Positions 311 to 57,583 of a stretch of 64,000 bases of DNA are shown here, piece by piece. A program made the position numbers and the translations under genes. The notes beneath the pieces were generated by a model that saw only the letters and a program-made list of their open reading frames with translations, was not told where the DNA came from and made no database searches. Position 1 is the first letter of the stretch, and each line of letters starts with the position of its first letter. The stretch comes from a virus. The stretch is from the IMG/VR virus record IMGVR_UViG_3300025154_000082, positions 4,296 to 68,295 of that record; one strand, written 5' to 3'.

Positions 311-658
311 TTAAACTTGGATCTGAGTAATATTTGATCTTCTTTTGTTGCTAAAAGATAGTTTGCTTTTGGGTAAAGTTGATATTGAAACATTTTGTTT
401 TGTCATTCCTTTCCACTTAAATTTAAAGAAAGATACTACTCCTTGGTCTATATCTGTTTTCGTAAGAATTGCTGTAGGAATACCAATATTTGGTAATATA
501 AATAATTTTAAATAAATAGGTAAAGTTGTATTAAAAACCGATAATCCAAGTATAACCCCACCTATTAAATAAATAGTTTGTTTCCCTGTAAGTCCATAAA
601 ATATTTCATCCTTCATTTCAATAATTTGATTTGTGTCGAACATTTCAGTATTTAACAT
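311..658 (-). CDS. small membrane protein (two predicted TM helices; VirB3/PrgI-like position)
   Basis: 115 aa, hydrophobic core GGVILGLSVF and PIYLKLFILPNIGIPTAIL; immediately downstream of polytopic membrane protein. Confidence 0.3.
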   Translation of the reverse strand: MLNTEMFDTNQIIEMKDEIFYGLTGKQTIYLIGGVILGLSVFNTTLPIYLKLFILPNIGIPTAILTKTDIDQGVVSFFKFKWKGMTKQNVSISTLPKSKLSFSNKRRSNITQIQV

Positions 659-662
659 TAAA

Positions 663-1658
663 TTACCTCCTTCTACTCGCTCCTCTTCTTGAAGACATCA
701 TACCTCCCATTCTACCAAATCCACTATATCTAATAAGTTTTCTAGGGCTTAATCCATATTTTATCTCTCTAAACATAGCAACTGGATTCGGAGCTTGGTG
801 TCCATAACTAATCCATTGTTGAACATATGAAGGTGCTTTTAGCATAAATGATCCTGCCGATATACAAAGCATAATATGATAAAGTCCTCCGTGATTTGAT
901 TTTGATATTGAAGACTCAAATCCTAACCAAATCACCATAATAATCGCATGGATAATTGGAGCAATTAAGTTATCTAATAATTCATCAATCCATACCTGTC
1001 TCATATTTTGATGTTTGGGAAATAAACATAGATAGAAAAATATAGGTGCTGTAGCAACTAGAAACATAATAGAAATCATTCTCATGAAATAAAACCATAT
1101 TAAATTGACTAATATCATTGCAAAAATTAAAGTGAATATAATTAGACCTAAACCATACTGTGGAGTTAAAGCTCTGACCATTTGTGCTTCTGAACCGCCT
1201 AGAGATAGAATAACAATGGTAAATTTGTTTGTTGCATCTATTATCATTGGAAGTGCAATTATTGCAATATTTACAATGACCATTGATTGAGCTATCTTCA
1301 CAATATATTCTGTACTCTGATATTTACTACTTTTATTCATAATTTGCATAATTCCAAAATATACAATTCCTGCTATTGAGAATGTCATTATGATCTTTAA
1401 GAAGAAATAGTATAAAGATAATATTGTAGGATTTTCTGCCAATACATTAGGCGTGTGAAGAAATAATTGTGTAAAATTTTGAACTAGAGAATCAGTAATA
1501 AAATGTTCTAATCTTCCATTTACTGTAGAAATATCTTGAGGTGTAGGTGCATTAAATAAAGCATCATTAACATTTTGAACTGTTTCTAGGGATGGAGGTG
1601 TGATAAAAAATTTAATTATAGCATCTCCTGCTTCTCCAACAGTGAGCAATGGAATCAT
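663..1658 (-). CDS. polytopic integral membrane protein, VirB6/TrbL-like (T4SS channel component candidate)
   Basis: 331 aa with at least 6 long hydrophobic segments and basic C-terminal tail RRGASRRR; size/topology typical of VirB6/TcpH/PrgH-like proteins. Confidence 0.4.
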   Translation of the reverse strand: MIPLLTVGEAGDAIIKFFITPPSLETVQNVNDALFNAPTPQDISTVNGRLEHFITDSLVQNFTQLFLHTPNVLAENPTILSLYYFFLKIIMTFSIAGIVYFGIMQIMNKSSKYQSTEYIVKIAQSMVIVNIAIIALPMIIDATNKFTIVILSLGGSEAQMVRALTPQYGLGLIIFTLIFAMILVNLIWFYFMRMISIMFLVATAPIFFYLCLFPKHQNMRQVWIDELLDNLIAPIIHAIIMVIWLGFESSISKSNHGGLYHIMLCISAGSFMLKAPSYVQQWISYGHQAPNPVAMFREIKYGLSPRKLIRYSGFGRMGGMMSSRRGASRRR

Positions 1659-1688
1659 CCCCTTTATGAAGTTATAATAATTTTAATC

Positions 1689-1940
1689 TTAAAATTTTGG
1701 CATTGTTGGAAATACTCCTTTAAGTATTGTCCAGACAATCTTCACTACCCAAGGCCCAACAATTATAGTTATACATCCACGGATTACCGATTCCTTAAGC
1801 TCTTTGGATTGAGCTTTCCAATTTCCATTTCCAATGACATCCATGACACCAGCCCAGACTATCATGATCATAGCTAAACCAATTCCTAGTCCAGATAATA
1901 ATAAACAAATTTTTGTTGACCACTGGTTAAATTCTTCCAT
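1689..1940 (-). CDS. small two-TM membrane protein (VirB2/TrbC pilin-like or holin-like)
   Basis: 83 aa; TM1 ICLLLSGLGIGLAMIMIVWAGVM, charged loop KAQSKELKES, TM2 ITIIVGPWVVKIVWTIL. Confidence 0.35.
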   Translation of the reverse strand: MEEFNQWSTKICLLLSGLGIGLAMIMIVWAGVMDVIGNGNWKAQSKELKESVIRGCITIIVGPWVVKIVWTILKGVFPTMPKF

Positions 1941-2087
1941 GATAAAAACCTCCTAGAAATTTTAATTTTTCCATGCCTCTTTACTAAGAAGACCTAGATT
2001 TTAAAATCTGAATCCCTTTATTCATGCGGTCTGTAGGGTTCAGGGTGTATTAATGGCAATATAGGTGGTTAATATAGGGTTCTTGTC

Positions 2088-2115
2088 TTGATTTTTACAA
2101 ACATTCATGTATAAT
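2088..2115 (+). promoter_or_regulatory. sigma-A type promoter (TTGATT-16-TATAAT) for small plus-strand gene
   Basis: -35 ttgatt at 2088-2093, -10 tataat at 2110-2115; followed by RBS aaggag at 2156-2161. Confidence 0.4.
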
Positions 2116-2172
2116 CGACATTATTTTGGTTAATAATATGGTCAACGAAATAAATTAAGGAGTGTGAATTTA

Positions 2173-4008: not shown

Positions 4009-4251
4009 CTACTCCCCTCTACCTCCTCCGCACTCATAAACAAAAATAAAATTAACATAATTTAAACTTATCTTTAAAACATTTTCCACAGATTCTTCTA
4101 ATCCACAAATTTCACTGATATAATTTTTAGCAGAATAATCTCTTTTTGCTCTAATTAAACATTTCGCAACTTCATCAGTGATAGTAAAAACAGAATCGAA
4201 ATCATCATCATTTTGATTACAAATGATGATACATTCAGGTTTTTGTTTCAA
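4009..4251 (-). CDS. hypothetical protein
   Basis: 80-aa ORF. Confidence 0.3.
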   Translation of the reverse strand: MKQKPECIIICNQNDDDFDSVFTITDEVAKCLIRAKRDYSAKNYISEICGLEESVENVLKISLNYVNFIFVYECGGGRGE

Positions 4252-4540
4252 TCATTTCAACTCCTTTGGATGTAATGTAGAATGAATTGGCATTCCTCTC
4301 TTTCCACCCTAGTTTAACCATTCCAAGCATTAAAAGATGATTTAGATTATGTCTGACTCTCAAATGATTGATGTCAATTGCAAGAGATATATTCCTTACA
4401 GTTCTGCTGTTCATTGGATCAGTAAGATTTTCTGAAAATAAATGATGTAGAATATCTATCTCTAATTTTGATAGCATTTTAATTAGTTCACCTCGCTTTG
4501 TTTTAATAATGTGTGATAATGTATCTGATTGTTCAACCAT
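4235..4540 (-). CDS. winged-helix DNA-binding transcriptional regulator (MarR/ArsR-like)
   Basis: 101 aa; helix-turn-helix-like segment LKMLSKLEIDILHHLFSENLTDPMNSRTVRNISLAIDINHLRVRHNLNHLLMLGMV followed by wing. Confidence 0.4.
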   Translation of the reverse strand: MVEQSDTLSHIIKTKRGELIKMLSKLEIDILHHLFSENLTDPMNSRTVRNISLAIDINHLRVRHNLNHLLMLGMVKLGWKERNANSFYITSKGVEMIETKT

Positions 4541-4699
4541 GCTTCATACTCCATCTTATTGATTGATAATTGTCCATTATGTTAGTCAATTTATGGGAAA
4601 TCTTTGGACTTAAATGAAGTTGATTAATCAGACCTATACAATTACCCAAACATTATTTTATATGCTTTAATTTGATTTATTTTGTAAATTAATTTAAGA

Positions 4700-4736
4700 T
4701 TAATAAAAGAAAAGCCCTGATTTCTCAGGACTTAAT
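4700..4736 (-). terminator. intrinsic terminator after partition operon
   Basis: minus-strand RNA GUCCUGA-GAAA-UCAGGGC (one G-U pair) followed by UUUUCUUUUAUU, immediately after stop of 4739..4993. Confidence 0.4.
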
Positions 4737-4738
4737 AC

Positions 4739-4993
4739 TTAATCGTCAAACATATTAAAATTGATTTCTTTTACTGGTTTTGTTTTAGATCGCTCTTCCA
4801 TTCTAATTTCATCTTTTTTAACAAATACATCTATATAGATTTCCTCTTCATCCTCTAACATTACCTTATCTTCACCTTTAAAAAAATAATCATACAAAGC
4901 TCTTCTAATTACTTTGCTTCTCCTATTCTTAGGGATTGCATCAAGAAATGGTTTTAAGATTCTGTCGTCTCTAAAGTTTCTAATTTCCCCCAT
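4739..4993 (-). CDS. small basic DNA-binding adaptor candidate (ParR-like position)
   Basis: 84 aa, overlaps end of ParM-like gene; N-terminal RRSKVIRRALYDYF segment compatible with ribbon-helix-helix; acidic C-terminus. Confidence 0.3.
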   Translation of the reverse strand: MGEIRNFRDDRILKPFLDAIPKNRRSKVIRRALYDYFFKGEDKVMLEDEEEIYIDVFVKKDEIRMEERSKTKPVKEINFNMFDD

Positions 4994-5922
4994 GATAGAT
5001 TCTTCACCAACTTTTCTGCCCCTCTTACATTTGAGAATTGACCTTTATGAAGTATTTTTTGAGGCCAATTAAGAAAATGATATATAGCAGACCCTCCTCC
5101 TCCAGTAACGATTATCTTGTCAATTTTCTTTAAATCATAAAAGGTTGATACATCTGCCTTGATTAATGTTGCAATGTCTGGGTAAAAATTCGCCAATGAG
5201 TCATAACCATCATATAAATCTACTTCATATATTTTTCTATCAGCACGTTTATAGATTTGCCACATTCCATTATTTGTAGTTTTGCAAAGTTCTCTAACTA
5301 TTTCACCTCTGAGTAAATAAATTAGATTTACAGTACCCATTCCTACATCAACGATTAAAGTAACATTAGGAATTTCTTCTTTAGTTTTGCCCTCATCATC
5401 AAGAAAATAATCCATTGACGCACAATATCCCTGTGGGAGACTTTTTATAAGTGTCGGTTTAAAGTTATGAATATGCTCAATATCCCCAATTTTATAATTA
5501 ATATCCATATCATGAGAAAACATATCAATAATTGATTTTTTTTCACTAAAATAAGATTCAAATGGAAAAAGAAATACTACTTTGTCTTCATTTTTATAGT
5601 TACATAAGGTATATTTAGTAAGAATTTTGAATGTTGATTGCTCTGTTTTAATTCCTTCAAGTGAATAATCTTGAGCATACCCATGTAAAATTGCATCTTC
5701 TCCAATGTAATGATTATCAATAACCCACATTTTCTTTTCAGTAAAAGAATCTTGATATTTCCCTATGACAGAAAGAATCTTTAATTCCCTGCCTTTTGAA
5801 TTTAACGCCTTCACATATGAATTACCACAGTCCAAAAACAGCATATTTACTCCTCCTTTGATTTGTAATACAATTGTAAGACATTGTCTTACAATTGTAT
5901 TACAAATTTTATGAAAATACAA
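4954..5922 (-). CDS. actin-like ATPase of the ParM/Alp family (plasmid segregation)
   Basis: actin-fold motifs: phosphate-1 LDCGNSYVKA, phosphate-2 IVDVGMGTVNL, adenosine IVTGGGGSAIY. Confidence 0.6.
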   Translation of the reverse strand: MYFHKICNTIVRQCLTIVLQIKGGVNMLFLDCGNSYVKALNSKGRELKILSVIGKYQDSFTEKKMWVIDNHYIGEDAILHGYAQDYSLEGIKTEQSTFKILTKYTLCNYKNEDKVVFLFPFESYFSEKKSIIDMFSHDMDINYKIGDIEHIHNFKPTLIKSLPQGYCASMDYFLDDEGKTKEEIPNVTLIVDVGMGTVNLIYLLRGEIVRELCKTTNNGMWQIYKRADRKIYEVDLYDGYDSLANFYPDIATLIKADVSTFYDLKKIDKIIVTGGGGSAIYHFLNWPQKILHKGQFSNVRGAEKLVKNLSWGKLETLETTES

Positions 5923-5928
5923 GAGGTT

Positions 5929-7434
5929 TTATGATTCTAATAAATTATCATAATATTTCCAACCAAGAGGTACTCCTGTTTCGGGATGCAATCCGCAATA
6001 CTTTGCTTTATTTCTGCAACATAGAGATATACCTGAATGAAAAATATTATATTTTAATCCAGCCTCTGTTTGAGAATTAAATATTTCTCCAGTAGTAGTG
6101 CATATTATTTTACTAAAAACTCTTTTGCTTTTATATCCACTTTTTCTAGTCTCTTCTTTTGGGTCGTAATCACACCAACCTAGCTCAGTTCCCTGCTTAA
6201 GATATTTTATAACCGTTGATCTACATTTTTTTATTATACTTGATATTTTTAATGTGTTTTTAATATCATTCCACATATTACAAATAGTTTTTACAATGCT
6301 TTTACAAGCATATTCATAACATTTTAACCAGTCTATATCACTTTCTGAAAAATTTAAAAGTTTTGGCAAATCTGATTTCATAATACTGTTTTTAATCCAA
6401 TTCATATTTGAATATCGACAATCTAAGACTATGTAATTATTAATATTATTGTTTCTAGCTAATTGTTCTTTTACTTTGTCATTCTCTTGGACTTCATTTA
6501 ATCTCATTCTCCATGTACTATTAGTTTCTTCATAATGTTGAATTCCTTGACACTCACAAATAATTTCATCAATTTTATTTATGTAAAAGTCATATTTATA
6601 ATTATCGCACCATTTGAAAGTTTTTTCAGATAATTGTGTATTAAAATCATTGCCTAATAATTGTTCAAATACATTAAATAAAAATTTCTCAGGAAAACTT
6701 ATACCGTCCCCACAACATTCACATCCAAATCCTTTTTTCCACAATTTATCCAAACTCTTTTGTTTCTCATGTCCACAATCTGGACATTTCATTGGAATTT
6801 TTTTATTTGAACCAACTGAATATTTATAAGCATCTTCTTTATTAACTAAAAATTTAATAAGTTCTTGATGCGTAACTGAAATTGTATTACACATAATACA
6901 ATCAAGACTTATGGTAGATCCTTTTTTTATTGTTGTATAAGTAAAACGAGCAATACTTTTTAATTCGGATTTATGTTCTGGATGATCTAAGCATTTAAAC
7001 CAGTAGCCCTTATTATTAAAACCTACCGAACCATAACTTACATATTTAGGACTTATTATATTGCCATTTTCGTCAATATTTAAACTATAATCCCAACGTG
7101 ATAATATCCAATCAGCCAATTCTTTAGAGAGATGGGTATAGCACCACTCATAAAAAGAAATATAATTTTTGTGTCCAGTTTGAGAACATTTATGACAATA
7201 ATATCTTCCATCTTCTTTTACATATTTCTTGTAATTAAGCCATTTCATAGGTTTTAAATATTCTTTACATCCATCACATTGAACGTCAACTATAGCACTA
7301 GATGCATGTGTTAAATCTTCTACTTTTACTTTAAATTCCTCTCCAAGTTTAGTAAAGGCAAATCCTTTATCTATGTACCACTTTTTACTACTAAAATGCC
7401 ACTTCATTATTACCTCTTTAGTTATTAATCCCAC
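5929..7434 (-). CDS. zinc-ribbon-repeat / DUF559(Vsr-like) endonuclease-family protein with C-terminal homing-endonuclease-type HTH
   Basis: repeated W-D-x-x-N ... YWFKC..H / CxxC zinc-ribbon modules; core DFYINKIDEIICECQGIQH (DUF559/Vsr-like PD-(D/E)xK pattern); C-terminus GEIFNSQTEAGLKYNIFHSGISLCCRNKAK..GWKY resembles NUMOD-like HTH tails of phage HNH/GIY homing endonucleases; paralog of 52374..53654. Confidence 0.5.
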   Translation of the reverse strand: MGLITKEVIMKWHFSSKKWYIDKGFAFTKLGEEFKVKVEDLTHASSAIVDVQCDGCKEYLKPMKWLNYKKYVKEDGRYYCHKCSQTGHKNYISFYEWCYTHLSKELADWILSRWDYSLNIDENGNIISPKYVSYGSVGFNNKGYWFKCLDHPEHKSELKSIARFTYTTIKKGSTISLDCIMCNTISVTHQELIKFLVNKEDAYKYSVGSNKKIPMKCPDCGHEKQKSLDKLWKKGFGCECCGDGISFPEKFLFNVFEQLLGNDFNTQLSEKTFKWCDNYKYDFYINKIDEIICECQGIQHYEETNSTWRMRLNEVQENDKVKEQLARNNNINNYIVLDCRYSNMNWIKNSIMKSDLPKLLNFSESDIDWLKCYEYACKSIVKTICNMWNDIKNTLKISSIIKKCRSTVIKYLKQGTELGWCDYDPKEETRKSGYKSKRVFSKIICTTTGEIFNSQTEAGLKYNIFHSGISLCCRNKAKYCGLHPETGVPLGWKYYDNLLES

Positions 7435-7483
7435 AATCTAATCCTCCTCTTTCTATAAATTATTATATTTCTCCCTACTTAAT

Positions 7484-7512
7484 ATTATAGCATAAATAGT
7501 AAATCATGTCAA
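7484..7512 (-). promoter_or_regulatory. consensus sigma-A promoter (TTGACA-17-TATAAT) for partition operon
   Basis: minus-strand TTGACA at 7507-7512, 17-nt spacer, TATAAT at 7484-7489; RBS aggagg at 7443-7451 precedes start 7434. Confidence 0.55.
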
Positions 7513-7689
7513 CATATATTTATTTTATAATTTAATAATTTTCTCTATCCCTTTCAGTGTTGTCCGGCCCAAACACTTATCAACATGTGTATAAAATTTT
7601 AGAAACTTATACACAGCCTTGTCGATTTGTAGTATAATGTATTAACATGTCCAACCCATATTAATGTTAATTTTTAGCAAAAGAATAAT

Positions 7690-15206: not shown

Positions 15207-16520
15207 ATTTTAACCTCCTATAATAAAATCTCATACGGACTCACTTGAACTTCACACGAATTAATTAGTGTGATTCTTAATTCATTGACCAGACTAACGC
15301 CCAATCTCCTTAAGCTAACCCTGTAGTTCCTACAGTTTTTATTAATTATGCTATTAACTTCAATCCTTCATTTCTAATATTAATAGCAGCATTTATGTCT
15401 CTATTATGACTACTGCCACATTCTGGGCATTTCCATTCCCTAACACTTAAATCTAAATCAACATATTTCCATCCACAAACATGACAAAGTTTACTACTAG
15501 CAAAATATCTATCCACAACAGAAATTTCTCTACCATACCAAATTGCTTTATAATTCAACATTGTAGTAAAACTATACCATGAAGCATCTGATATACTTTT
15601 CGCTAATTTATGATTCTTCTTCATTCCTTCAATATTAAGATCCTCTAGGCAAATAACTTGATTTTCATTGATAAGTCTAGTTGATAATTTTTGAAGAAAG
15701 TCCTTCCTAGTATTAGTAATTTTCTCATGAAGTCTAGCCACTTTAATTCTTGCCTTGTTTCTATTTTTACTACCCTTTTTCTTCTTAGATAGTTTTCTTT
15801 GAAGTTTTACTAATTTATCTTCATATTTACGATAATATTTTGGATTATCAATAATTTCACATTCAGATGTAATAGCAAAATCTTTAATTCCCAAATCAAT
15901 ACCAATATTTATTTCTGATTTAGGTAATTTAATAGGCTCTGGCACTTCGCAAAGAATAGAGATAAAATATTTACCACTAGGAACCTGAGATATTGTTACA
16001 TTTTTAATTATTCCAATTACTTCTCTTGATTTAGCAAATTTAACTAAACCAAGTTTAGGAAGTTTAATTCTATTGCTTTCGATTCTAATATTATTATTTG
16101 TAAAAGTAGTACGATAAGACTTTCTATTATCTTTTTTAGATTTGAATTTTGGAAAACCTTGATTATTATTACCTTTCTTAATTTCTCTAAAGAAATTCTG
16201 ATAAGCTAAGTCTAAGTTTTTAAGAGTTTGTTGGAGAGATATACTATCAATTTCTTTAAGTCATTCAAATTCTTTTTTAAGTTGAGGTAGGAGAATAGCA
16301 CATTGATTATATGTTAAAGTTTGATGATTTTCTTTATACATCTCGATCCTTTTATCTAGAAAGTAATTATAGATGAATCTATTTGAACCTAAATGTTTAT
16401 TGATTAAAATTGTTTGCTCTTTGTTTGGGTATAGTCTGAATTTGAATGTTTTAAGCAATTGATACTCACCTCCAATATTTATTTATTATATCAAATTTTT
16501 AACTGATTTGTTAACAATTT
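15207..16520 (-). mobile_element. degenerate IS200/IS605-family TnpB-only element (IS1341-like)
   Basis: tnpB fragments in several frames; 3' tail 15230-15345 conserved with tail of intact copy at 47380-47503. Confidence 0.5.
15346..16458 (-). pseudogene. tnpB: tnpB pseudogene (multiple frameshifts)
   Basis: N-terminal 65-aa piece 16261..16458 and C-terminal RuvC-III/zinc-ribbon piece 15346..15945 (CHVCGWK...CPECGSSHNRDINAAINI) match full-length 47504..48637; middle third broken. Confidence 0.55.
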
Positions 16521-19449: not shown

Positions 19450-19974
19450 TTATTTCGAAGTATTACTTAAAGTAATCTCTATCTTACAATCACTAATTAA
19501 TTGTCTATATTTTACTTCTGCCATATTTAGAATAAATCTAGAAGCAATTGTTTGTTCCATATCCTTATATTTATCACTTAGATATACTACTTCAGATATT
19601 CCAGATTGAACAATTGTTTTAGAACACTCATTACAAGGAAATAATGTGGAGTAAAGAATACATCCATTTAAATTATTTTTAGCATAAAGTATAGAATTTT
19701 GCTCTGCATGAATGACATATAGATATTTTCCTTCTAATCCTTCTTTTGATTCCCAAGGCATTTCTGAATCATTGCATTTGTTAGGCATTCCATTGTAACC
19801 AGTTGATATGATCCGATGATTAGTGTCCACTATACATGCTCCTACTTGTGTTCTTGGATCTTTGCTACGCAATGATGATATGTACGCAACGCTCATGAAA
19901 TAATCATCCCAATTTATTATTTGCATTTGGTTTTGTAGTCCTTTCTGTGAGGGGGTAGGAGAGATATATTTCAA
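19450..19974 (-). CDS. dCMP deaminase (cytidine/deoxycytidylate deaminase family)
   Basis: zinc-binding HAEQNS and PCNECSK motifs. Confidence 0.75.
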   Translation of the reverse strand: MKYISPTPSQKGLQNQMQIINWDDYFMSVAYISSLRSKDPRTQVGACIVDTNHRIISTGYNGMPNKCNDSEMPWESKEGLEGKYLYVIHAEQNSILYAKNNLNGCILYSTLFPCNECSKTIVQSGISEVVYLSDKYKDMEQTIASRFILNMAEVKYRQLISDCKIEITLSNTSK

Positions 19975-20139
19975 TCTCTGCTACTAAAAATATAGACAAA
20001 TATACTCAATTATCTATATCTAGATAATTGCTGATTCATAGTGTCTGTTTTTGTATTATTTCTAACACTACTCACATTTGGTGTAACACTCCACAGCCGT
20101 AAATTCCCGACTAGCCATCGGTATTTGATAATATTTGTT

Positions 20140-21319
20140 TTAAGCAACTTTAAATACTTTAGCATTCTTCAAATTTACACTTGCATTTTTATCACGATCA
20201 AGAATCATTCCACATTCTTTACAAATATATTCTCTATCTGAAAGTTTCAAATCCCTATCTATAGCACCACATTCACTACACATTTTACTTGAAGGAAAAT
20301 ATCTATCAACAATTCTTAACTCAATATTATTCCATGAACATTTATATGTTAATTGCCTTCTAAACTCATGAAAACTTTGTTCGGCGACTGCTTTAGATAA
20401 ATGCCTATTCTTCATCATCCCCTTGACGTTCAAGTCTTCGATCACTATATACTCTGGTTTGTTTTTCACCAGAATATTTGTGATTTGATGAGCATAATTT
20501 AAACGAATATTGGATAATTTTTGATAAATAGTTCTGATTTGAGCTTCTAACTTGATAATGTTTTTAGTTTTAATGAACTTCTTGCCATCTTTGTTCATTT
20601 CGTATTTTTTAGAGACTTGACGTTGAAGTCTTCTTAATTTTCTTTTAAGTTTCTTTACAGCAATAGTCTTATTGATATTTTTGAATGGTTTATCAATATT
20701 GCTGATAATTGCCAAATCCTTAACCCCTAAGTCAATTCCAATTCCTTCATTACTAACATTTGAATAATTATTATTGTCTACAATATCACACAGTACAGAA
20801 ACATAATACCTTCCTGCTTTCATTGAAACAGTACCACTTACTACTTTTGCATTGGTTGGAATATATCCTTTTTCTTTCAGTTCGACAAATCCTAAAGTTG
20901 GAATTTGTATTTTATGACGTTTAACAGTCCAGTCACCCTTCCCATTCTTAGGAAAATAGATATTAACATCTTGATTTTTCTTCTTCTTGAATCTAGGGAA
21001 TTTAGCTTGCCCCCTTAAAGAATCTTTTATATGCCATTTCTGCATTTACGATTGCTTTCTTTCTTGCCTTTGACCCACAATTATCAATCCATTTGAATTC
21101 ATCTAATACTTTTACTTCATTATTAATATATTTATCAAAATCATTGGCACTCATAAACGCTTGTTTCTTGTCAATCTTACCTTCTTTGTATAATTTATAA
21201 AGTTCTTGATTCTTAGTTAAATAAGAATTATAGAGGAAGCGACATATGCCAATTGATTGATGAATTTTATTAATATGAATTTCGGTTACTCTGAGTTCAG
21301 TTTTAAATCCTTTGAGCAT
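20140..21319 (-). pseudogene. tnpB: tnpB with single-base frameshift in poly-G tract
   Basis: ORFs 21002..21319 and 20140..21045 join as ...AYKRFFKG/QAKFPRFKKK if the GGGGG run (plus-strand ccccc 21011-21015) is GGGG; C-terminal zinc ribbon CSECGAI...CKECG. Confidence 0.55.
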
Positions 21320-22212: not shown

Positions 22213-25200
22213 TTAGCACTTGCTATATCCACAAACACAACTAATACAGCCACTAATATGTTTCAATTTAATACCACAGTCTGGACATTTATCTTTTTCA
22301 TCAGGTTCCAATTTTTCTTCATTTGATAATTTAGCAATAGGTTTAATACTTGCACTTAATTCTCCATTGATAAATTTTAGCATTTGTTTTGCTATAGAAT
22401 CCGCACAACTTTTCCCGATAGTCTTATCTTTTTTTCTAGCTTCTTTACTCACATCGCAACTTACGCTTTGAAGTTGATCAATTACTTGCAGAGGATCAAC
22501 ATTTGCTCTTAATAATAATGATACAGACCTACTCAACCCCTCTGTCATTCCGCGACAGCCTCCGGTACTTCCTGATTGAGAAAATATTTCACATAAATTA
22601 TTATCATTGTCATATACAAGTGTTAACCACATTGATCCACATCCAGTTTTAATTTTTAATCTTACTGAATTGGCAATATCTAATGTTTCATTAATCAAGA
22701 CATATTTTTTATCTTCATCAGTTGAAGAAATTTTACCTCCTGAAAGGGTTTGATTTTGTCTTGACCCATCTCTATAGACAGCTAATCCCTTAAGACCTTC
22801 TTTCCAAGCATAAATGTAAATATCATATATATCTTCTACACTAGCATTACTTGAAAAATTGACTGTTTTAGACAAGGATAAATCTACATGTTTTTGCAAA
22901 ACTGATACCATGTTCACATGTTCTTTAGGAGATAAATCATGAGCAGTAACAAAAATATTTCTAATTTCTTTAGGAATTTCTTTTATTCCTTGACATGAAC
23001 CATGATTATTTTCAATCTTACCCATTAGTTCTTCAGAATAAATCCCCAATTCTTTAAGTTTGTTTTCAAAGGTTGGATTATTTATAAAATAAATATTATT
23101 ATCATATGTCCTACGACTGTATGTAAGACCAAATTGTGGTTCGCAACCTCCAGAAACCCCTGCTAGAAATGATATTGTTCCATTGGGGGCAATTGAAAGC
23201 AATGAACTATTTCTAACTTTCAATCCCTGTTGTTGCCATTCACTACCTTCCCAAGCAGGGTAAACTCCTCGTTCTTCTGCTAAATCCATTGTAGCTTTTA
23301 AGGCATTGTCTTTCATTACTTTAATAATTCTCTCTGCGAAATCATAACCTTTTTGAGAATTATATTTAATTCCTAATACATACAGAGCATCTGCCAAACC
23401 CATCATTCCCATTCCAATGGGACGAATCGCTTCAGTCATTTGTTGAATTTTGGTTAGTGGCAATTTATTAATAGAAATCATATTATCAAACCATCTAATC
23501 GCTTTATATGACAAGATTTTTAATTTATCCCAATTAAATTTACCATCTTTGATACAAGCATATATATTAATACTACCTAAGTTACATGAAGAATTAGGTA
23601 TATTACTAAACTCATTGCAATTATGGACATAAGCTCCATTTGTAATTCCCATATGTAACTCATTTTCTGTAAAATCCCATACTTCTGCTTCATCTAGTTC
23701 AGAGATTAATATCACTGTTTCAAATTTTTCATCTAGTTTGTTTTGGTATTCTAGATAGCCATTTTTATAGTCTTGAATAAATCCAATTTCATCAAGGAAT
23801 TTTTTATAGGAATTTCTACTAATAACAATATGGGCAGATTGTTTACAAGTATAAGTCCCATTGCTAAATTCTATATCATTCTTTTTATTGTGATACCACA
23901 ATTTGCCTTTAACACCAAACATCAATAACATTTGTTGAACCTGTTTCAACATTTCTGTATTAATAGATACTAATTGAATCCTATGATGTTCTTTTAAATT
24001 GCATCCATTTGCACTAAAAAGTCCAATCAAAAAATCTTTCATTTCATTTTTAGGAAGAGTCATAATCCAATCTGGTATCATACGATCATCAATTTTATCA
24101 TAAAAAGCATTAGCGTATACAGTACCATAGGGGATATTTAAGACATGATTTATATCTTGCTTGTTAGAATCTTTTGCGTAAAACTTTTCTCCTAATTCTT
24201 TTTCTATTAAAATCATTGCTTCTTTATCTTTTTCTGGATTTGCAAAAATATATTTCATTCTATTAGATGCTTTATGGAATGTTGCATCTCCAAATTCAAA
24301 ACCTAAGACTTTATAATTTACATGAGGGTATAGATTATTTCCGATCCATTCTTTTTCTTTAATTTCAAAAGCAATATCTTTTCCAATTAAATCAATTGCT
24401 TTACACCAACTACCATCTTTAAGCATAAATTTATGATCTTCAGTAGTAGTGTACTCATAACCACTTTTAGTCATAATTTTATATACTTTTTTTATGCCTG
24501 TTTGCCATGTTTTCGTAGTTACATATTTTTCTCCATTCCACATCTTAGATTTAATATTGCTAATTTTCTCTAAACCATTCTCAGTTACCATATAAGTATC
24601 TTTGTGTAAACAAGGATTTGTAAAAATTAATGTACTTAAATGTTTATTGGGATTATCCGCATCCATGCGACTTTGATAATTCGCTCCGGGTTCTCCTGTC
24701 TCCCATGAACATCTTGCAATTTCTTCTAAAATTTCTTTTGCTTTTAATGTCTGATACACAATGGTTGGATAACCTTTATCTTTCCACCACTCTAAATCTC
24801 CATTCCATTCTTGATTATAAATTTCCTTATTCCATTGATAATCAGGAAACTCTAGATTCCAATCTTCATCATTTTCTACAGCCTTCATAAAATCATCAGT
24901 AAGAGAGATAGAAATATTCATTCTTTTTAATTCACTTGTATTGTCTTTACTATGTATAAAATCTAATAATTGAGGATGCCAACATTGAAGATTTATTTTT
25001 AAAGCGCCTTTTCTTGATGGATTAAATTTAGTCATATCATCAGCAGTTCTATCATATTTTCCCATAAATGTAGTAACTCCACCAGCATATCCTTTAGATG
25101 TATCTACTTTTGCTTTTGCAGGTCTTAATACACTAATATCTGTTCCTGCACCACCATTGCGTTGAAAAATCTTACTAAATTCTGCATCTAACAAACATAT

Positions 25201-25479
25201 GTCTTCTATATTATCTTTCGTTTGCAAAACAAAGCAAGATGATAATTGGCCTGGATTATCTTTATCTGCGTTTAACAAAACGGGTGTACTAAATATGAAT
25301 TCCAAATTAGACATTGCTTCATAAACTTCTTTTTTAATCTGTTGTTTTTTATCATTAGTTTCTACTTCTGCAATTGCAGTTGAAACCCTTTCACATAAAT
25401 CTTCCCAAGTTTTTTCGTTTTCTTTAAAGTATTGTTTTTCTTTAAGTAATTTCAATGCATCTTCTGAAATAGTTGTCAA
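22213..25479 (-). CDS. nrdJ: class II (adenosylcobalamin-type, monomeric) ribonucleotide reductase NrdJ, intein-containing
   Basis: after intein removal active site reads TNP-C-NEFSNIPNSSCNLGSINI (cf. NPCGE...CNL of class II RTPR); C-terminal zinc ribbon CPDCG...CISCVCG. Confidence 0.7.
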   Translation of the reverse strand: MTTISEDALKLLKEKQYFKENEKTWEDLCERVSTAIAEVETNDKKQQIKKEVYEAMSNLEFIFSTPVLLNADKDNPGQLSSCFVLQTKDNIEDICLLDAEFSKIFQRNGGAGTDISVLRPAKAKVDTSKGYAGGVTTFMGKYDRTADDMTKFNPSRKGALKINLQCWHPQLLDFIHSKDNTSELKRMNISISLTDDFMKAVENDEDWNLEFPDYQWNKEIYNQEWNGDLEWWKDKGYPTIVYQTLKAKEILEEIARCSWETGEPGANYQSRMDADNPNKHLSTLIFTNPCLHKDTYMVTENGLEKISNIKSKMWNGEKYVTTKTWQTGIKKVYKIMTKSGYEYTTTEDHKFMLKDGSWCKAIDLIGKDIAFEIKEKEWIGNNLYPHVNYKVLGFEFGDATFHKASNRMKYIFANPEKDKEAMILIEKELGEKFYAKDSNKQDINHVLNIPYGTVYANAFYDKIDDRMIPDWIMTLPKNEMKDFLIGLFSANGCNLKEHHRIQLVSINTEMLKQVQQMLLMFGVKGKLWYHNKKNDIEFSNGTYTCKQSAHIVISRNSYKKFLDEIGFIQDYKNGYLEYQNKLDEKFETVILISELDEAEVWDFTENELHMGITNGAYVHNCNEFSNIPNSSCNLGSINIYACIKDGKFNWDKLKILSYKAIRWFDNMISINKLPLTKIQQMTEAIRPIGMGMMGLADALYVLGIKYNSQKGYDFAERIIKVMKDNALKATMDLAEERGVYPAWEGSEWQQQGLKVRNSSLLSIAPNGTISFLAGVSGGCEPQFGLTYSRRTYDNNIYFINNPTFENKLKELGIYSEELMGKIENNHGSCQGIKEIPKEIRNIFVTAHDLSPKEHVNMVSVLQKHVDLSLSKTVNFSSNASVEDIYDIYIYAWKEGLKGLAVYRDGSRQNQTLSGGKISSTDEDKKYVLINETLDIANSVRLKIKTGCGSMWLTLVYDNDNNLCEIFSQSGSTGGCRGMTEGLSRSVSLLLRANVDPLQVIDQLQSVSCDVSKEARKKDKTIGKSCADSIAKQMLKFINGELSASIKPIAKLSNEEKLEPDEKDKCPDCGIKLKHISGCISCVCGYSKC
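23620..24612 (-). mobile_element. intein (331 aa) with LAGLIDADG homing endonuclease domain inserted at RNR active-site Cys
   Basis: begins with Cys (aa290) after TNP and ends ...VHN followed by Cys (aa621); LAGLIDADG blocks VLGFEFGDATF and FLIGLFSANGC. Confidence 0.65.
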
Positions 25480-52333: not shown

Positions 52334-52362
52334 ATTATACATTATTTGATTATATATGTCAA
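52334..52362 (-). promoter_or_regulatory. consensus sigma-A promoter (TTGACA-17-TATAAT) for lipoprotein gene
   Basis: minus-strand TTGACA 52357-52362, TATAAT 52334-52339, RBS aaggag ~9 nt before GTG. Confidence 0.5.
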
Positions 52363-52373
52363 TATTTTATTTC

Positions 52374-53654
52374 TTACTTTACACTTATTCCTTCAATAGT
52401 TTTACTTAATATTTCTTCAATTCTATCAAATTCATAATACCAAATCTCAAGAAAATTATACTCTTTTTCTAAAGCGTATTCTTTCTTTCGTCTGTCATGT
52501 TCGACTTGTTTTTCAAAGTCTTTAATTGATTTATGTATTCCTTTTACAAATCTTTCATGCATTTCACCTTGATATTCTATAAGTAAATTATATTGAGATA
52601 AATAAAAATCATAAGATAATAAACATCCACCTAGACCAATTAGTCCTTCAAATGTTTTTTGTGGTATGTAATTTATTTCTTTGTCGAATAATTTCTTGCC
52701 AACTTCAATTTCACCTATTGAACATTGACATTCTGGACATCTAAAATCACGCGAATTAGAACCATCAATGTTTCTCTTATAGTCTTTATGTTTACCGTCT
52801 TTACATTTCCACCAAACTTCTTTACCACTACGAGGAGCATATTCGTATGGAGATTTTTTATTTTTATTAGACCATAAATTTAAAACTTCAGGATGTATAA
52901 TACCTAAACTATCTAATTTATGCAGTATATGATTATTATTACAGTATGAACATCTTCTATCATTATAAAAATTACATGGTGACACATCATAACTCCCATG
53001 GTGTTCTTTATCTTGGCATTTAATCCATACTTTATTTCTTGCACATTTATCAATCTTCCAAGGATTAACAGTGTTTTTATCATGATCCCAATACTTTTCT
53101 AAAAAATCTTCTCCTAGATTATCTACTCCCCATTGTGCAAACGAATTACATTGTTTGCATTTTATAGATCCTTCCTGTCCACCAGTAAAAGCATTAATAT
53201 TCTTTAATTCACTATTATGTAAACTTCTTGGGCATTTAAAATAATGTTTTTTATTTGTAGCAAAACCTATTTCATTTGGGTTCTTTTTATTTAACTCATA
53301 GTCCCATCTGTCAAGAATGTCTTGTCGATTATTTTCAATACACCATTGTTCAAAAGATTTGCCATTCTTTAATTTTGATATTCTAAATCTTTCCTGACCG
53401 CATTTTAGACAATAATATTTTCCATCTTCCTTCATTATTCTTTTATAACTATGCCATATTACAGGTTTGGTAATTGGAGTAGTACATTCTTTGCAATCAC
53501 ATTTGACGTTTACTTCCACAGGACTACCATCTGTCAAATCTTCCACTTTAACTTCAAATTCGTCACCCATCTTAGTATAAACATAACCCTTACTTTTATA
53601 CCACTTTATATTGTTTGAATTCCACCTAATAATAACATTTTTAGTTAATAACAT
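52374..53654 (-). CDS. zinc-ribbon-repeat + C-terminal DUF559/Vsr-like PD-(D/E)xK endonuclease
   Basis: three W-D-x-x-N...KC..H...C..C ribbon repeats; C-terminus SYDFYLSQYNLLIEYQGEMHERF...DRRKKEYALEKEYNFLEIWYYEF matches DUF559 pattern DFYLP..LaIEvDG..H; N-terminus paralogous to 5929..7434. Confidence 0.5.
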   Translation of the reverse strand: MLLTKNVIIRWNSNNIKWYKSKGYVYTKMGDEFEVKVEDLTDGSPVEVNVKCDCKECTTPITKPVIWHSYKRIMKEDGKYYCLKCGQERFRISKLKNGKSFEQWCIENNRQDILDRWDYELNKKNPNEIGFATNKKHYFKCPRSLHNSELKNINAFTGGQEGSIKCKQCNSFAQWGVDNLGEDFLEKYWDHDKNTVNPWKIDKCARNKVWIKCQDKEHHGSYDVSPCNFYNDRRCSYCNNNHILHKLDSLGIIHPEVLNLWSNKNKKSPYEYAPRSGKEVWWKCKDGKHKDYKRNIDGSNSRDFRCPECQCSIGEIEVGKKLFDKEINYIPQKTFEGLIGLGGCLLSYDFYLSQYNLLIEYQGEMHERFVKGIHKSIKDFEKQVEHDRRKKEYALEKEYNFLEIWYYEFDRIEEILSKTIEGISVK

Positions 53655-53683
53655 TACATCACTCCTTTTCTGTGCAGTATAAA

Positions 53684-56254
53684 TTATTTAATCATACTAT
53701 CGTTAATTTTATTTCCCAATTTACTAGCAGTTCTGATACTATCATCATCTTCCAAATTAACATCAAACTGTCCGACAATTGCTTTACTTTCTGCCATTTT
53801 ACGCTGATAACGCTTGATAATCCCATTCTCACATGAATTGTCGTAATAGAAATGAAAAATTCTGTTTTCTTCTGTGCTATTAGCCCTATAACCTCTTCTA
53901 TTTGACTGACTAACAACATTTACATGATAACTGGGCATATAATTCAAAAACGTCTGCAAAAATACAAGATTTAATCCTACTTGAACTAACATAGGGTTAG
54001 TTATCAATACTTGAAAATCATTTTTCTTTTTCTCAAGTAATTCCTTTCTTTCGTATGTAGGAATAGAAGGCTTCAGAGTAAAAAACTTAATATTATTTTT
54101 TGATAATAAAGATTCAATTCTTTTAGCAATAGTATCTCCCATCATATATTCCCCACCACCATTGAAATCAACATATATACAGCATTTTCTTCCTTCAAAA
54201 ATTTCTAGCAAAACTCTATCTAATATTGCTTGTTCTTTTGGTAAAATACAATTAGTAATACATTTTGGTTGAACTTCAGTATAACTTTCTTCTCCTCTAT
54301 TAATAGGAATACTACTCCAATTAAATGGATTGTTAACATAGTGTTTTAATATACTATCTTCGTACATTTTTGCATTAAAGGCATTAGCCGATTTAATATC
54401 ACTCCACAGATTGCGTTCTAAGCGTTCCATTTCGTCACTTTGACATATTGGTATGTAATACTCATTTAAGTCTGGCAAATCCTTTCCTAGATCGTCCAGA
54501 GTAGCAAATATGTAATTCTCTACTAAATATTTACTGAACACAATAGGGTTTATCCCTTCGATTTCTTTGAACTCGCTATCCTTTATTTCACTTCTACCAG
54601 AACGATAGTATTCTCCATCTTTCTTTTTGCTTACCGCCATTAATGTCCCATACGTCTTAATAAATTTCTCTATTTCCATTACATCATTTTCCTTTAGTTT
54701 ATTAGGTAACAATCCTAATAATAAATTAAATAAACTCGAACTATAACCATTATTACTGGTTCCTGAGTTTAATATTATTTTCTTAGCATAATTAAACAAT
54801 GTCCTAGTAGCATTCCCAATAATTGTCTGTCCGTTGCTCTCGTGAATTTCATCGCAAATCACACTGTCAAAATGAATATTCTTAGTTTTAATAAATCTAA
54901 TTAAACTACTTTTCTTTGTCTTATCGTATGTACTCTGCCATAATACAGCATCACAATTCGAACATTTATAATTTGATTTCTTAGGATTACCTTCAAAATC
55001 TTTCTGGGTGAAAAATACATCTTCCTTTTTTCTTAATTCATTTTGTAAAGGTCTTCCACAGTCTGGACAACAAGCGATAGTTATTTTCTCTTTAACATCT
55101 TTAATTTGTGAATAACTATAGTATCCACCACTCTGTACTTCTTTTTTATGTTTAATTTCCATTGTTCTAATGTTTACACCAGATATTCGTTTTGCATCAA
55201 GTTTAAATGTTTCTTTACCAACTAGAAAATAAGTTGGCTTATTAAATTTTAACCCAGTCATATTATATATTTGAATGAATTCTGATGTTTTCTTAATTAT
55301 ATGGATATCAATTTTATCTCCTACACTATTTTTTATTTCATCTTTCCATTGAGTTAATGTAATTGCTGGAGCCATAATTAATGTAACATAGTTTTGTTTA
55401 TTAGGATATAAATGGCAATGATTAATTTTTGTTGCATTCATTGTTTTTCCAAAACCTTGACTTAAAGCCAAATACACAAATCTGCTTCTTTTTAGGACTT
55501 CTAAAGCAGATTGAATAATAGGAACTTGACCATCAAATGGTTTCATCTTTCCTTCAAACATTTTTTGATTAATATTCTTAGGATCAAATAAAATTCTAAC
55601 ATTTTGTTTCAATCTATCTTTAATAGGATTTAAAAATGCAAGTATATAGTCCTGAATATCGTCAATTTTGCTCCAATCAAAATCTTCCTCATATCCTTCT
55701 AATGTCAAAGCATTTAAACTCTGTTTAAAATAAGTCACATTAATCTTATATACCTTTAAATCAGTATATAAATGATTATTGGTGTAAACTATACATTCGC
55801 TAACACAACCATAATTAGAAGATTTATATTTAGAATTATTAATTTCATCTTTATCCAAAATCATTTTAACAATCTCAGCAGTAACAGGTAAGTAATGAAT
55901 ATTTCTCAAATATTTTGTAAGAATCTTATTCTTATCTTCATTATTCCAATTAATACAATAATCATTTATTTTAGTATTATAAATAATTGTATGAGTTAAA
56001 TCATTATCCATTCTGTCCGACTTATAACGATAACGATTTTCTCTACCATACAATGTTTGTTCAAAGAAGATATCTTCTCTATCTCGTAAAGTAATATGAT
56101 AAGAATGAGAGATTAAATCGGAACATATTTTTCTATTCTTGATGTGTAGGTCGCATAGACTGATTAATATTGGATCTCCATTATCCAGTATAATTAAATC
56201 AGCATTACAATTGATAGTATTTTTATCTGTTGTTCGCAAGTAAGGAATCAACAA
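53684..56254 (-). CDS. SF2 DExH-box helicase (ResIII/SNF2-like) with inserted CxxC...CxxC zinc ribbon
   Basis: TTG start immediately after MTase stop with embedded RBS ggaggtg; motif I LSQGFGKT, II ICDEIHE, VI QSNRRGYRA; CCPDCG...CSNC insert; ~250-aa N-terminal region of unknown function. Confidence 0.65.
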   Translation of the reverse strand: MLIPYLRTTDKNTINCNADLIILDNGDPILISLCDLHIKNRKICSDLISHSYHITLRDREDIFFEQTLYGRENRYRYKSDRMDNDLTHTIIYNTKINDYCINWNNEDKNKILTKYLRNIHYLPVTAEIVKMILDKDEINNSKYKSSNYGCVSECIVYTNNHLYTDLKVYKINVTYFKQSLNALTLEGYEEDFDWSKIDDIQDYILAFLNPIKDRLKQNVRILFDPKNINQKMFEGKMKPFDGQVPIIQSALEVLKRSRFVYLALSQGFGKTMNATKINHCHLYPNKQNYVTLIMAPAITLTQWKDEIKNSVGDKIDIHIIKKTSEFIQIYNMTGLKFNKPTYFLVGKETFKLDAKRISGVNIRTMEIKHKKEVQSGGYYSYSQIKDVKEKITIACCPDCGRPLQNELRKKEDVFFTQKDFEGNPKKSNYKCSNCDAVLWQSTYDKTKKSSLIRFIKTKNIHFDSVICDEIHESNGQTIIGNATRTLFNYAKKIILNSGTSNNGYSSSLFNLLLGLLPNKLKENDVMEIEKFIKTYGTLMAVSKKKDGEYYRSGRSEIKDSEFKEIEGINPIVFSKYLVENYIFATLDDLGKDLPDLNEYYIPICQSDEMERLERNLWSDIKSANAFNAKMYEDSILKHYVNNPFNWSSIPINRGEESYTEVQPKCITNCILPKEQAILDRVLLEIFEGRKCCIYVDFNGGGEYMMGDTIAKRIESLLSKNNIKFFTLKPSIPTYERKELLEKKKNDFQVLITNPMLVQVGLNLVFLQTFLNYMPSYHVNVVSQSNRRGYRANSTEENRIFHFYYDNSCENGIIKRYQRKMAESKAIVGQFDVNLEDDDSIRTASKLGNKINDSMIK

Positions 56255-57583
56255 TTATTCACCTCCTAATTCCTTGATTACTAACTTACCATTATCTGAG
56301 CACAAAATATTCAAATAGGGTAAACTCATCTTAATAATCTTAGTTTCCGTATAACTTTCCCCACTATCATCTTTATATTTACTTACTTCTTTTTTCTCAA
56401 TACTCTTAGTTCCACCAATAGCAACATGTTTACCAGTACCATCTTCTAATGATATTTCTCCATTTATCATTCCAGATGCTAAGAGATTACTAATTTCTCC
56501 TAATTTTAATGGTTTAGGGACTACTAATTTTTCTTCTCCTAAATCTTTTAATTCTGTAATGCCTTTAACCCATTTCCATATTGAATCATTTTTACTGATA
56601 TGAGAAGTTGGAGATTCGATATATTTATTATTTTCTTTTGCTGTATTGTAGTCAATGTATGGATAATTCATTGATTGATATGTGTTGTATTGTGATAATT
56701 TAAATTCTGGTTCAGAGAGAATTATTTCTTTAACTTCATTGTATTGTTTAGTGAAATCCATTGCTTGCATAGTGTTAGAGAGGTCATAAGGAAATCGCTT
56801 TAGGTGAGCTACGAAGACATATTGCTTAAATTTAGCGTATTCTTCTGGATTTGTTTTATAGATTGAATTTTTGAGAATGTCAAAGTTTTTGGATAGAATG
56901 TCTAGAGAATCTAAGAAATCATCTTTTCGAATTATGCAGACGATGTAACCTGTTTTGTAATCTTTTGATGTTGTTGGGTTAAAAATAAGTTGACGGTCAA
57001 GTATCATTTGGAGATACATTTTTACATTACGTGTATTATTTGTCGAACCATAAGGAGGATTATAAAGCATTAAACTCACTATATTTTTCCCTATATTTAA
57101 TTCTTCAAATGACTTATTGTACGAATCATAAATGTTTGGGTTTGATTCAATTTCTTTATGCCGATTTTCTTCGATTTCATTAGCAACAAGAATATAATTA
57201 TTACTTGAATTTTTTCTAGGTAAAAATGAAGCAAAAGCGTCTAAAAATAATCCTTCACCAGCAAACAAATCAGCAACCACAATATCATGATTATTATTAC
57301 TTCCTAATCCATATTCACAATTATTTTTTATCATATCATAATCTTTATTATTTAACCACATGTCGTAGTACACATAATCTATTGGGACTTGGTTATCCAA
57401 GGCTTTTACAGCTAATTCTTGATATATTCCTTCTTTTGTATAATATTCTTTAAGATAGTTTTTCTTCAACCAGTCAATTTCTACTCTGCCAAGAAGTCCT
57501 AATAATCTATGTGCTTCTCCTAAATCTGTAGGATAGTACATGAGTTTTCCTTCAGCAGCTAAACTATTTCCCATATGTATCAA
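56255..57583 (-). CDS. gamma-class N6-adenine (NPPY) DNA methyltransferase
   Basis: motif I VADLFAGEGLFLDAF precedes motif IV LMLYNPPYG; size similar to M.TaqI-type enzymes. Confidence 0.65.
   Translation of the reverse strand: MIHMGNSLAAEGKLMYYPTDLGEAHRLLGLLGRVEIDWLKKNYLKEYYTKEGIYQELAVKALDNQVPIDYVYYDMWLNNKDYDMIKNNCEYGLGSNNNHDIVVADLFAGEGLFLDAFASFLPRKNSSNNYILVANEIEENRHKEIESNPNIYDSYNKSFEELNIGKNIVSLMLYNPPYGSTNNTRNVKMYLQMILDRQLIFNPTTSKDYKTGYIVCIIRKDDFLDSLDILSKNFDILKNSIYKTNPEEYAKFKQYVFVAHLKRFPYDLSNTMQAMDFTKQYNEVKEIILSEPEFKLSQYNTYQSMNYPYIDYNTAKENNKYIESPTSHISKNDSIWKWVKGITELKDLGEEKLVVPKPLKLGEISNLLASGMINGEISLEDGTGKHVAIGGTKSIEKKEVSKYKDDSGESYTETKIIKMSLPYLNILCSDNGKLVIKELGGE

Follow-up and report, generated by a model that had tools for sequence, protein, structure and literature searches.

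Two probable free-standing homing endonuclease genes joining zinc-module arrays to a Vsr-like nuclease domain in a large phage-like element

The DNA analysed here, referred to as the window, is a stretch of 64,000 nucleotides from an IMG/VR virus record. Its gene content includes a Pol III alpha-type polymerase, RecD-like and DnaB-like helicases, a ribonucleotide reductase with an intein, the thymidylate synthase ThyX and a ParM/ALP-like protein, and TraG-like and relaxase-like genes are found on the same contig, probably just past the low end of the window. Two further ORFs on the minus strand, A (501 aa) and B (426 aa), are located where an earlier note on this DNA had placed them and contain the peptides it quoted; tblastn of both proteins against the window found no third copy. 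IMG/VR classes related contigs as viral, exact copies of the A and B proteins occur in public metagenomes (P0121 and P0001), and A is found on JGI contigs of 158–230 kb. A and B are carried by a phage-like element that is large (at least 158 kb) and low in GC, with a uniform GC content of 25–32% in the window and both genes compositionally ordinary. Megablast of the A and B regions against 50,697 phage records gave no match, so the element has no close cultured relative in that set.

ORF A (positions 5929–7434) is a probable free-standing homing endonuclease gene of the zinc-module and Vsr-like nuclease type with an HTH/NUMOD-like tail, starting with GTG 7 nt past the ribosome-binding site AGGAGG. 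Residues 1–95 (7150–7434, minus strand, as for all coding features given here) form an N-terminal four-cysteine zinc-ribbon domain (C53, C56, C80, C83) that is common to B, has invariant cysteines in the alignment and matches phrog_12131, a family labelled "homing endonuclease". This is followed in residues 100–243 (6706–7137) by one canonical DUF4379 module (W114, N119, C148, H154, C179, C182) and one CxxC...CxxC variant (C217, C220, C238, C241), and in residues 244–362 (6349–6705) by the Vsr/EDxHD-like nuclease domain (E249, D282, E294, G297, H300, D319, K322). The remaining residues, 363–501 (5932–6348), consist of a helical HTH region and a NUMOD1-like beta-beta-helix-helix tail (FNSQTEAGLKYNI..SGISLCC). 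The tail of the window copy has no match to the NUMOD1 (PF07453) or PF22083 profiles, and its predicted fold agrees with HTH. Among 20 orthologue tails, NUMOD1 was matched in 5 (best E 4.8e-6) and the I-HmuI NUMOD-like PF22083 in 5 (best E 7e-4), with several tails matching HTH families.

A perfect sigma-70-type consensus promoter for A (TTGACA, 17 nt, TATAAT, with an extended TG) is present at 7484–7512, within the segment specific to A (5942–7535), which is delimited by homology breakpoints to relatives lacking the gene: alignments on the ParM-like side reach 5923–5941, and on the other side homology resumes at 7536. Between the A stop codon and the ParM-like gene is a 43-nt operator-like palindrome (5863–5905). 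Because relatives without A keep this palindrome, it can be assigned to the resident par regulatory region and falls outside the A cassette, placing A upstream of, and outside, the partition genes. A is a self-contained cassette of promoter, ribosome-binding site and ORF directly upstream of this operator-like element of the ParM-like gene, and the suggestion that it sits inside a partition operon had to be abandoned.

Six loci without A have a ParM-like gene 90–96% identical to that of the window (L028, L029, L030, L031, L032 and L035; L030 is the same contig as L004), and their homology to the window stops at 5923–5941, which is within 12 nt of the A stop codon (5929–5931). L005/L034, with a ParM-like gene 74% identical, also lacks A. 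On the opposite flank L007, with a DnaA_N-like gene 88% identical, aligns down to window position 7536, some 100 nt 5′ of the A start. In L033, where the ParM-like gene is 88% identical, the position of A is taken by an A-type gene with 48% identity, and another A-type gene lies 3.7 kb upstream. When viral sequences were scanned with the ParM-like and DnaA_N-like proteins, and in a single metagenome scan, one-sided flanks were recovered and no A-less relative with both flanks joined. The neighbouring replication gene is also different in the A-less relatives, and the replication-gene side is mosaic. These observations support A as a mobile gene and the evidence is good, but with no joined-flank empty site and a mosaic flank it is less clean than that for B.

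ORF B (52374–53654) is likewise a probable free-standing homing endonuclease gene, encoding an N-terminal zinc ribbon, three DUF4379 modules and a C-terminal Vsr-like nuclease. Residues 1–312 (52719–53654) hold the zinc ribbon (C52/C54, C57, C82, C85) and the modules C141/H146/C166/C169, C213/H219/C235/C238 and C284/H289/C306/C309, with all three C-H-C-C modules preceded by W-D-x-x-x-N. The Vsr/EDxHD-like nuclease domain occupies residues 313–420 (52395–52718; E315, D349, E360, Q362, G363, H366, D387, K390), and the last six codons (EGISVK) and stop (52374–52394) are a remnant of the resident helicase 3′ end, matching the ...EGVGIK helicase end of alleles that lack B. Upstream of B is a 442-aa methyltransferase-like gene and then an 856-aa SNF2/ResIII helicase gene (53684–56254), whose last 32 codons and stop (53684–53782, ending ...KINDSMIK) form the helicase tail on the gene-proximal side of B. 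A 29-nt spacer (53655–53683) with the ribosome-binding site AAAGGAG separates the helicase stop from the B start. No promoter-like site better than 9/12 was found upstream of B; lacking a convincing promoter, B is probably expressed as part of the helicase transcript. Downstream is a 97-aa lipoprotein gene, whose resident promoter (TTGACA, 17 nt, TATAAT; 52334–52362) is kept in B-less alleles and marks the right-hand flank of the insertion.

The B locus was compared across 19 IMG/VR loci in which the helicase is 71–84% identical and is always preceded by the same methyltransferase-like gene; it is important to note that some of the metagenomic loci used in this analysis may be one phage sampled twice, and the counts are not all independent. 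The methyltransferase-helicase pair is kept in 19 of the 19 relatives and in the Logan contig L037, with a B-type gene behind it only in the window, L009 and L037. At four sites B is missing (L010, L016, L024 and L026), and there the helicase is followed directly by a homologue of the lipoprotein gene. When L016 was aligned with the window DNA, 11 nt were found in place of 52382–53699 (1318 nt). The helicases of the B-less loci end in ...AIEGKFDACLEDDDSIRTASKLGKKINEGVGIK or close variants, and the 3′ end in the L016 and L024 alleles reads ...GCACAAGCAATTGAAGGTAAATTTGACGCTTGTTTGGAAGATGATGA...AATGAGGGAGTCGGCATAAAGTAA.

The occupied sites show how the gene is joined to its surroundings (a slash marks each junction). 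In L009, a B-type gene 61% identical is found at the same site with its ORF reading on, in the same frame, through a further copy of the helicase tail (...EEILNK/AIEGKFNVCLENDDSIRIASKLGKKISEGVI, then the stop), and the helicase itself has the other tail copy at its end (...AIVGQFDVCLEDDDSIRTASKLSKKINDSATK). L037 has the same arrangement, with a B-type gene 77% identical and, behind it, an HNH endonuclease gene. The helicase of the window ends in ...KINDSMIK and B in ...EEILSKTIEG/ISVK, the second tail copy being cut to its last six codons; the 31–32-codon remnant is complete in L009 and L037. In the window B joins the tail at a stretch of GA(A/G)GG microhomology, with conservation of the promoter downstream. 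B sits in the 3′ end of an SNF2-type helicase gene, with an ORF that runs in frame into the resident second tail copy and uses its stop. This in-frame fusion to the duplicated tail of the invaded gene may repay attention.

An ...INDSxxK helicase end was seen only in the three helicases with a B-type gene behind them. The simplest reading of the locus is that a unit of helicase tail, spacer with ribosome-binding site and endonuclease ORF was inserted about 32 codons before the helicase stop, in which case the ...INDSxxK copy is the one that we infer to have arrived with the B cassette. As a check for co-conversion beside B, sliding-window identity was followed along the helicase gene, and it rises only for the L009–L037 pair and not for the window. 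At the same site L019 has a different Vsr-type gene (382 aa, matching phrog_559 at E 7e-86), and L014 and L023 have an HNH endonuclease. Since Vsr-type or HNH genes are held there in different relatives, the helicase 3′ end is a hot spot for endonuclease genes, with at least two nuclease classes represented. The sporadic occurrence of B in close relatives, its discrete boundaries, the four empty sites and the two further occupied ones support B as a mobile gene. Rather than being syntenic in all relatives, as might have been found for genes that do not move, both A and B are missing from several.

The two proteins are related most clearly at their N-termini, as had been noticed from the sequence, with 41% identity over residues 1–190 (BLASTP, E 2e-34); past about residue 190 BLASTP gave a weak match of 24% identity at E 0.002 and chance-level fragments. 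Alignments were made of B with 34 orthologues and of A with 39. Invariant zinc ligands in the B family are C52/C57/C82/C85 and those of the three C-H-C-C modules, and in the A family C53/C56/C80/C83, one canonical module and one CxxC...CxxC variant. The repeated W-D-x-x-N...KC..H modules that the earlier note described in both proteins are thus present as three copies in B, but A has only the canonical module and the variant. PF14311 (DUF4379, "probable treble clef zinc finger") is the sole Pfam family matched by A and B. It matches three stretches of B (E 1.1e-14, 54.8 bits) and one stretch of A at 23.9 bits, slightly short of the 24.5-bit gathering threshold, and is matched by 34 of 40 A orthologues. 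The N-terminal 100 residues gave no Pfam family and only insignificant zinc-ribbon matches. We also observed that the N-terminal zinc-ribbon domain of about 90 aa has a similarity of 0.45 between the A and B lineages compared to 0.44–0.51 within them, while the nuclease domain has 0.25 between lineages and about 0.6 within. An N-terminal domain as similar between as within lineages, beside a nuclease domain that is far less so, suggests that N-terminal modules may have been exchanged between the two.

AlphaFold2 gave confident models for both proteins (mean pLDDT 88.0 for B and 86.5 for A), and their low pTM fits a beads-on-a-string protein. A Vsr-like alpha/beta nuclease fold was found in the predicted structures of A and B, and the A-family and B-family nuclease domains can be aligned with each other, sharing E, Y-D, E-x-x-G-x-x-H and D-x-x-K. 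These motif residues are invariant in both families, save for the first E, which is conserved at 90% or more. The composite E...D...x...H...D motif is present in B as E315/D349/E360/H366/D387 and in A as E249/D282/E294/H300/D319. In register with I-Bth0305I, E315 of B corresponds to E170, D349 to D196, D387 to D222 and, with an offset of one residue, H366 to H213; family motif residues also align with E206/N208 of that enzyme. In register with Vsr, D349 corresponds to D51, H366 to H69 (again with a one-residue offset) and D387 to D97, and E360 aligns with an acidic residue at the Vsr Phe62 position.

Sequence similarity to enzymes of this fold is slight. A nuclease-domain profile run against PDB sequences gave Vsr at E 0.66–0.85 and 3r3p at E 0.99, which is not significant by itself, and phmmer of full-length B against the same sequences gave no match. 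The full-length profile matched, weakly, only DUF4379 proteins of trypanosome mitoribosomes. Neither A nor B matched the Pfam families PF04480 (DUF559) or PF03852 (Vsr) at E up to 1, and weak DUF559 matches appeared in only 2–3 orthologues (E 0.0035–0.014). Of the DUF559/Vsr-like core proposed earlier, the Vsr side stands in the predicted fold and the motif, and the Pfam assignment does not. The structure predictions do contain the Vsr fold that the proposal called for, and in both proteins they support a Vsr-fold core joined to DNA-binding modules of homing-endonuclease type.

Taken together, A and B are probably free-standing homing endonuclease genes of the kind that combines a zinc-module array with a Vsr/EDxHD-like nuclease, carried by a large phage-like element. 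Free-standing homing endonuclease genes are an accepted sub-class (PMC2988022). Rfam at gathering thresholds found no group I or group II intron in the window, and an intron-encoded reading of A and B was rejected with no intron around either gene; given their positions, between genes or at the end of one, they are free-standing. We propose that the N-terminal zinc ribbon and the DUF4379 treble-clef modules, with the HTH/NUMOD tail in the case of A, would lay the protein along an extended DNA target, and that the Vsr-like domain with Mg2+ would cut this target in a relative without the gene during co-infection. The residues likely to be involved in cutting are D349/E360/H366/D387 in B and D282/E294/H300/D319 in A, and recombinational repair from the gene-bearing genome would then copy the cassette. 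Under this scheme the target sequences, the immunity of the occupied allele and the form of the cut, a nick or a double-strand break, are points that we infer. The modules of A and B are distantly related to CapR-type CxxC...CxC fingers, which have been found experimentally to bind DNA and to require their cysteines (PMC8096241).

The position of B could be explained differently if it were the nuclease subunit of a methyltransferase and SNF2-helicase module, with a DarB-like anti-restriction or a restriction-type function, and not a selfish gene. It does lie directly behind the methyltransferase-like and helicase genes and appears to be co-transcribed with them. However, the pair is retained in every relative compared, with a B-type gene at so few of the loci, the helicase is joined straight to the next gene in four of them, unrelated HNH or other Vsr-type endonuclease genes fill the site elsewhere, and the paralogue A is in an unrelated gene context. 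With relatives keeping the pair without B we rejected this role, which is the least probable of the explanations considered here.

Homing endonuclease genes commonly decay once fixed, and one or both of the genes could be domesticated or decaying derivatives that only bind DNA, as a CapR-like repressor does, with A acting as a regulator of the adjacent partition genes. A adjoins the par regulatory palindrome, and CapR itself is a repressor and a domesticated relative of homing-endonuclease zinc-finger domains (PMC8096241). Against this, the predicted catalytic residues and zinc ligands are all intact in A and B and are invariant in 35–40 orthologues, and A is dispensable to relatives with a 90–96% identical ParM-like gene and the same palindrome, for which reason a partition regulator was rejected; domestication seems quite unlikely overall. 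It is very unlikely, too, that the nucleases serve mainly in competition between phages, by degrading or excluding co-infecting relatives, or in genome rearrangement, with their own spread as a side effect. The family is very large in phage-like contigs, and SegB is reported in a 2026 paper (PMC13096335) to promote amplification of anti-defence loci. With that said, competition and ordinary homing share the same mechanism and are not exclusive, and sequence does not separate them.

Returning to homing, a more specific version can be put forward only tentatively, and we regard it as doubtful: that B-type cassettes bring a substitute helicase 3′ end and use their treble-clef arrays as a modular DNA-reading head, with the order of modules setting the target. 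The substitute 3′ end may keep the helicase intact, destroy the target site and weld the endonuclease ORF in frame to the resident tail. If true, this would be the first phage example of tail-replacement homing by a Vsr-type enzyme, and the treble-clef arrays would be a possible new scaffold for engineered nucleases.

The family to which A and B belong is large and unevenly named. A phmmer search of B against 1.84 billion representatives returned 13,635 clusters (50% identity) at E ≤0.001, with 543 at ≤1e-30, and tblastn found distant homologues (<60% identity) in 170 cultured-phage records. In Enterococcus phage 113 the homologue interrupts the gene for the large terminase and bears the annotation "group I intron-associated VSR homing endonuclease". 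Some GenBank records name relatives homing endonucleases, and in many public records members of the branch are unannotated or named HNH or restriction endonucleases. Foldseek against viral models likewise returned phage entries called "homing endonuclease" or "group I intron protein" and many giant-virus proteins called "restriction endonuclease" or "treble clef". In PHROGs, phrog_9084 and phrog_12131 are labelled "homing endonuclease". The label of phrog_559 is "HNH endonuclease", which looks like a mis-annotation in view of the Vsr-type fold seen in this analysis. In the literature searched, no member of the zinc-module and Vsr-like branch has been tested biochemically, and A and B are convenient starting points for characterizing it. 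Occupied, empty and differently occupied sites at the same two loci are unusually clean natural experiments that narrow where the targets would be located.

Several known nucleases can be compared with A and B. E. coli Vsr (PDB 1CW0) is a repair enzyme of one domain that nicks DNA specifically at T:G mismatches and has a zinc site and intercalating tryptophans of its own, and neither A nor B matches the Pfam families of Vsr or of the DUF559-type NGO0050 (PDB 3HRL). The phage homing endonucleases I-TevI (GIY-YIG) and I-HmuI (HNH) are modular, but their catalytic folds differ from that of A and B. Organellar free-standing endonuclease ORFs are known that are fused in frame to the duplicated 3′ end of the gene they invaded, as in Allomyces atp6. 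They resemble B in their insertion in the 3′ end of a conserved gene, the duplicated tail and the ORF joined in frame to one copy; those ORFs encode mitochondrial LAGLIDADG or GIY-YIG enzymes, whereas B is Vsr-type and in a phage-like element.

The closest comparison is with the EDxHD family, which has the Vsr fold, is represented by I-Bth0305I (PDB 3R3P; motif residues E170, D196, H213 and D222) and has been known since 2009–2011 as the accepted sixth homing-endonuclease family (PMC3239194, PMC6083498). A later proposal made F-CphI a seventh family, counting EDxHD among the six already known (PMC6083498), and the free-standing T4-type Hef was assigned to EDxHD by Taylor et al. (PMC3239194). 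I-Bth0305I, encoded in a group I intron, carries two NUMOD2/HTH motifs at its N-terminus; A and B are free-standing and have treble-clef zinc arrays instead, and in A the nuclease is internal with the HTH/NUMOD1 tail behind it. The sequence similarity of A and B to this enzyme is marginal (E about 1), which fits the description in 2025 of zinc-module and Vsr-like proteins as a large outgroup of EDxHD (PMC12350094). That paper describes three to five zinc modules of about 60 aa each followed by a Vsr-like nuclease of about 100 aa, with thousands of mostly unannotated relatives. Its four described genes are intron-encoded, unlike the free-standing A and B, and a search of the first 50 kb of the AR9 genome, where AR9 intron-encoded genes were sought, found no homologue. 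The earlier note had offered A and B as a new homing-endonuclease type, which is not supported given the long-known EDxHD family, the architecture already described and the existing PHROGs labels; the current picture of homing endonuclease classes is unchanged by them. Likened by described architecture, B fits the account in PMC12350094 exactly, with four zinc modules and a C-terminal nuclease, and A fits it with three zinc modules, the nuclease and an extra HTH/NUMOD tail. A and B are new members of this already described endonuclease class.

Both A (501 aa) and B (426 aa), which we read as products of free-standing homing endonuclease genes, begin with a zinc-ribbon domain of ~90 aa (window 7150..7434 in A and 53361..53654 in B, both on the minus strand) that has no Pfam family. 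The similarity of this domain is 0.45 between the A and B lineages and 0.44–0.51 within each, whereas the nuclease domain falls from ~0.6 within lineages to 0.25 between them. Since the zinc ribbon is as similar between lineages as within them and the nuclease is not, these sequence comparisons suggest that the two lineages exchanged their N-terminal module.

Just upstream of the ParM/ALP-like gene lies a 43-nt palindrome with 20-bp arms and a 3-nt loop (window 5863..5905). A similar inverted repeat occupies the same place in the related contig loci L004 and L005, both lacking A, and window 5861..5905 aligns to further relatives without A as well; the palindrome is probably a par operator or a centromere-like site. 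Another related locus, L033, carries an A-type gene of 586 aa (392..2152) and another of 581 aa (4145..5890), and in both the NUMOD-like tail segment occurs twice. Of the two, the gene that lies upstream of the ParM-like gene finishes in a stretch with homology to the 3′ end of A in the window. By analogy, this could reflect fusion to what was left of an earlier occupant, the same kind of fusion as that of B with the helicase tail.

The large-subunit ribonucleotide reductase ORF (1088 aa, window 22213..25479, minus strand) contains an intein with a LAGLIDADG_3 domain at approximately residues 315–620, and this intein is a third selfish endonuclease element in the window, of a class other than that of A and B. 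A 199-aa ORF (window 15346..15945, minus strand; gene 1490-2089 of locus L001) has precomputed Pfam matches to OrfB_IS605 and the Cas12f1-like TNB domain; it is shorter than a full TnpB needs and is possibly a remnant. A full-length Rfam match to RAGATH-18 RNA (RF03064; gathering score 44.9), at 70.5 bits, was observed on the minus strand (window 20028..20097) in the space that separates ORFs 19450..19974 and 20140..21045.

Endonuclease genes have a hot spot at the 3′ end of the SNF2-type helicase gene: related loci have there a different Vsr-type gene (L019, 6105..7253), an HNH gene (L014 and L023, 8604..9530), or a B-type gene followed in tandem by an HNH gene (Logan contig L037, 5201..6091). 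In the window, this 856-aa SNF2/ResIII helicase is paired with a 442-aa methyltransferase-like protein that matches DUF6094 weakly (together 53684..57583, minus strand), and every one of the 19 IMG/VR relatives, like L037, keeps the pair. The pair resembles a DarB-like methyltransferase-helicase split in two.
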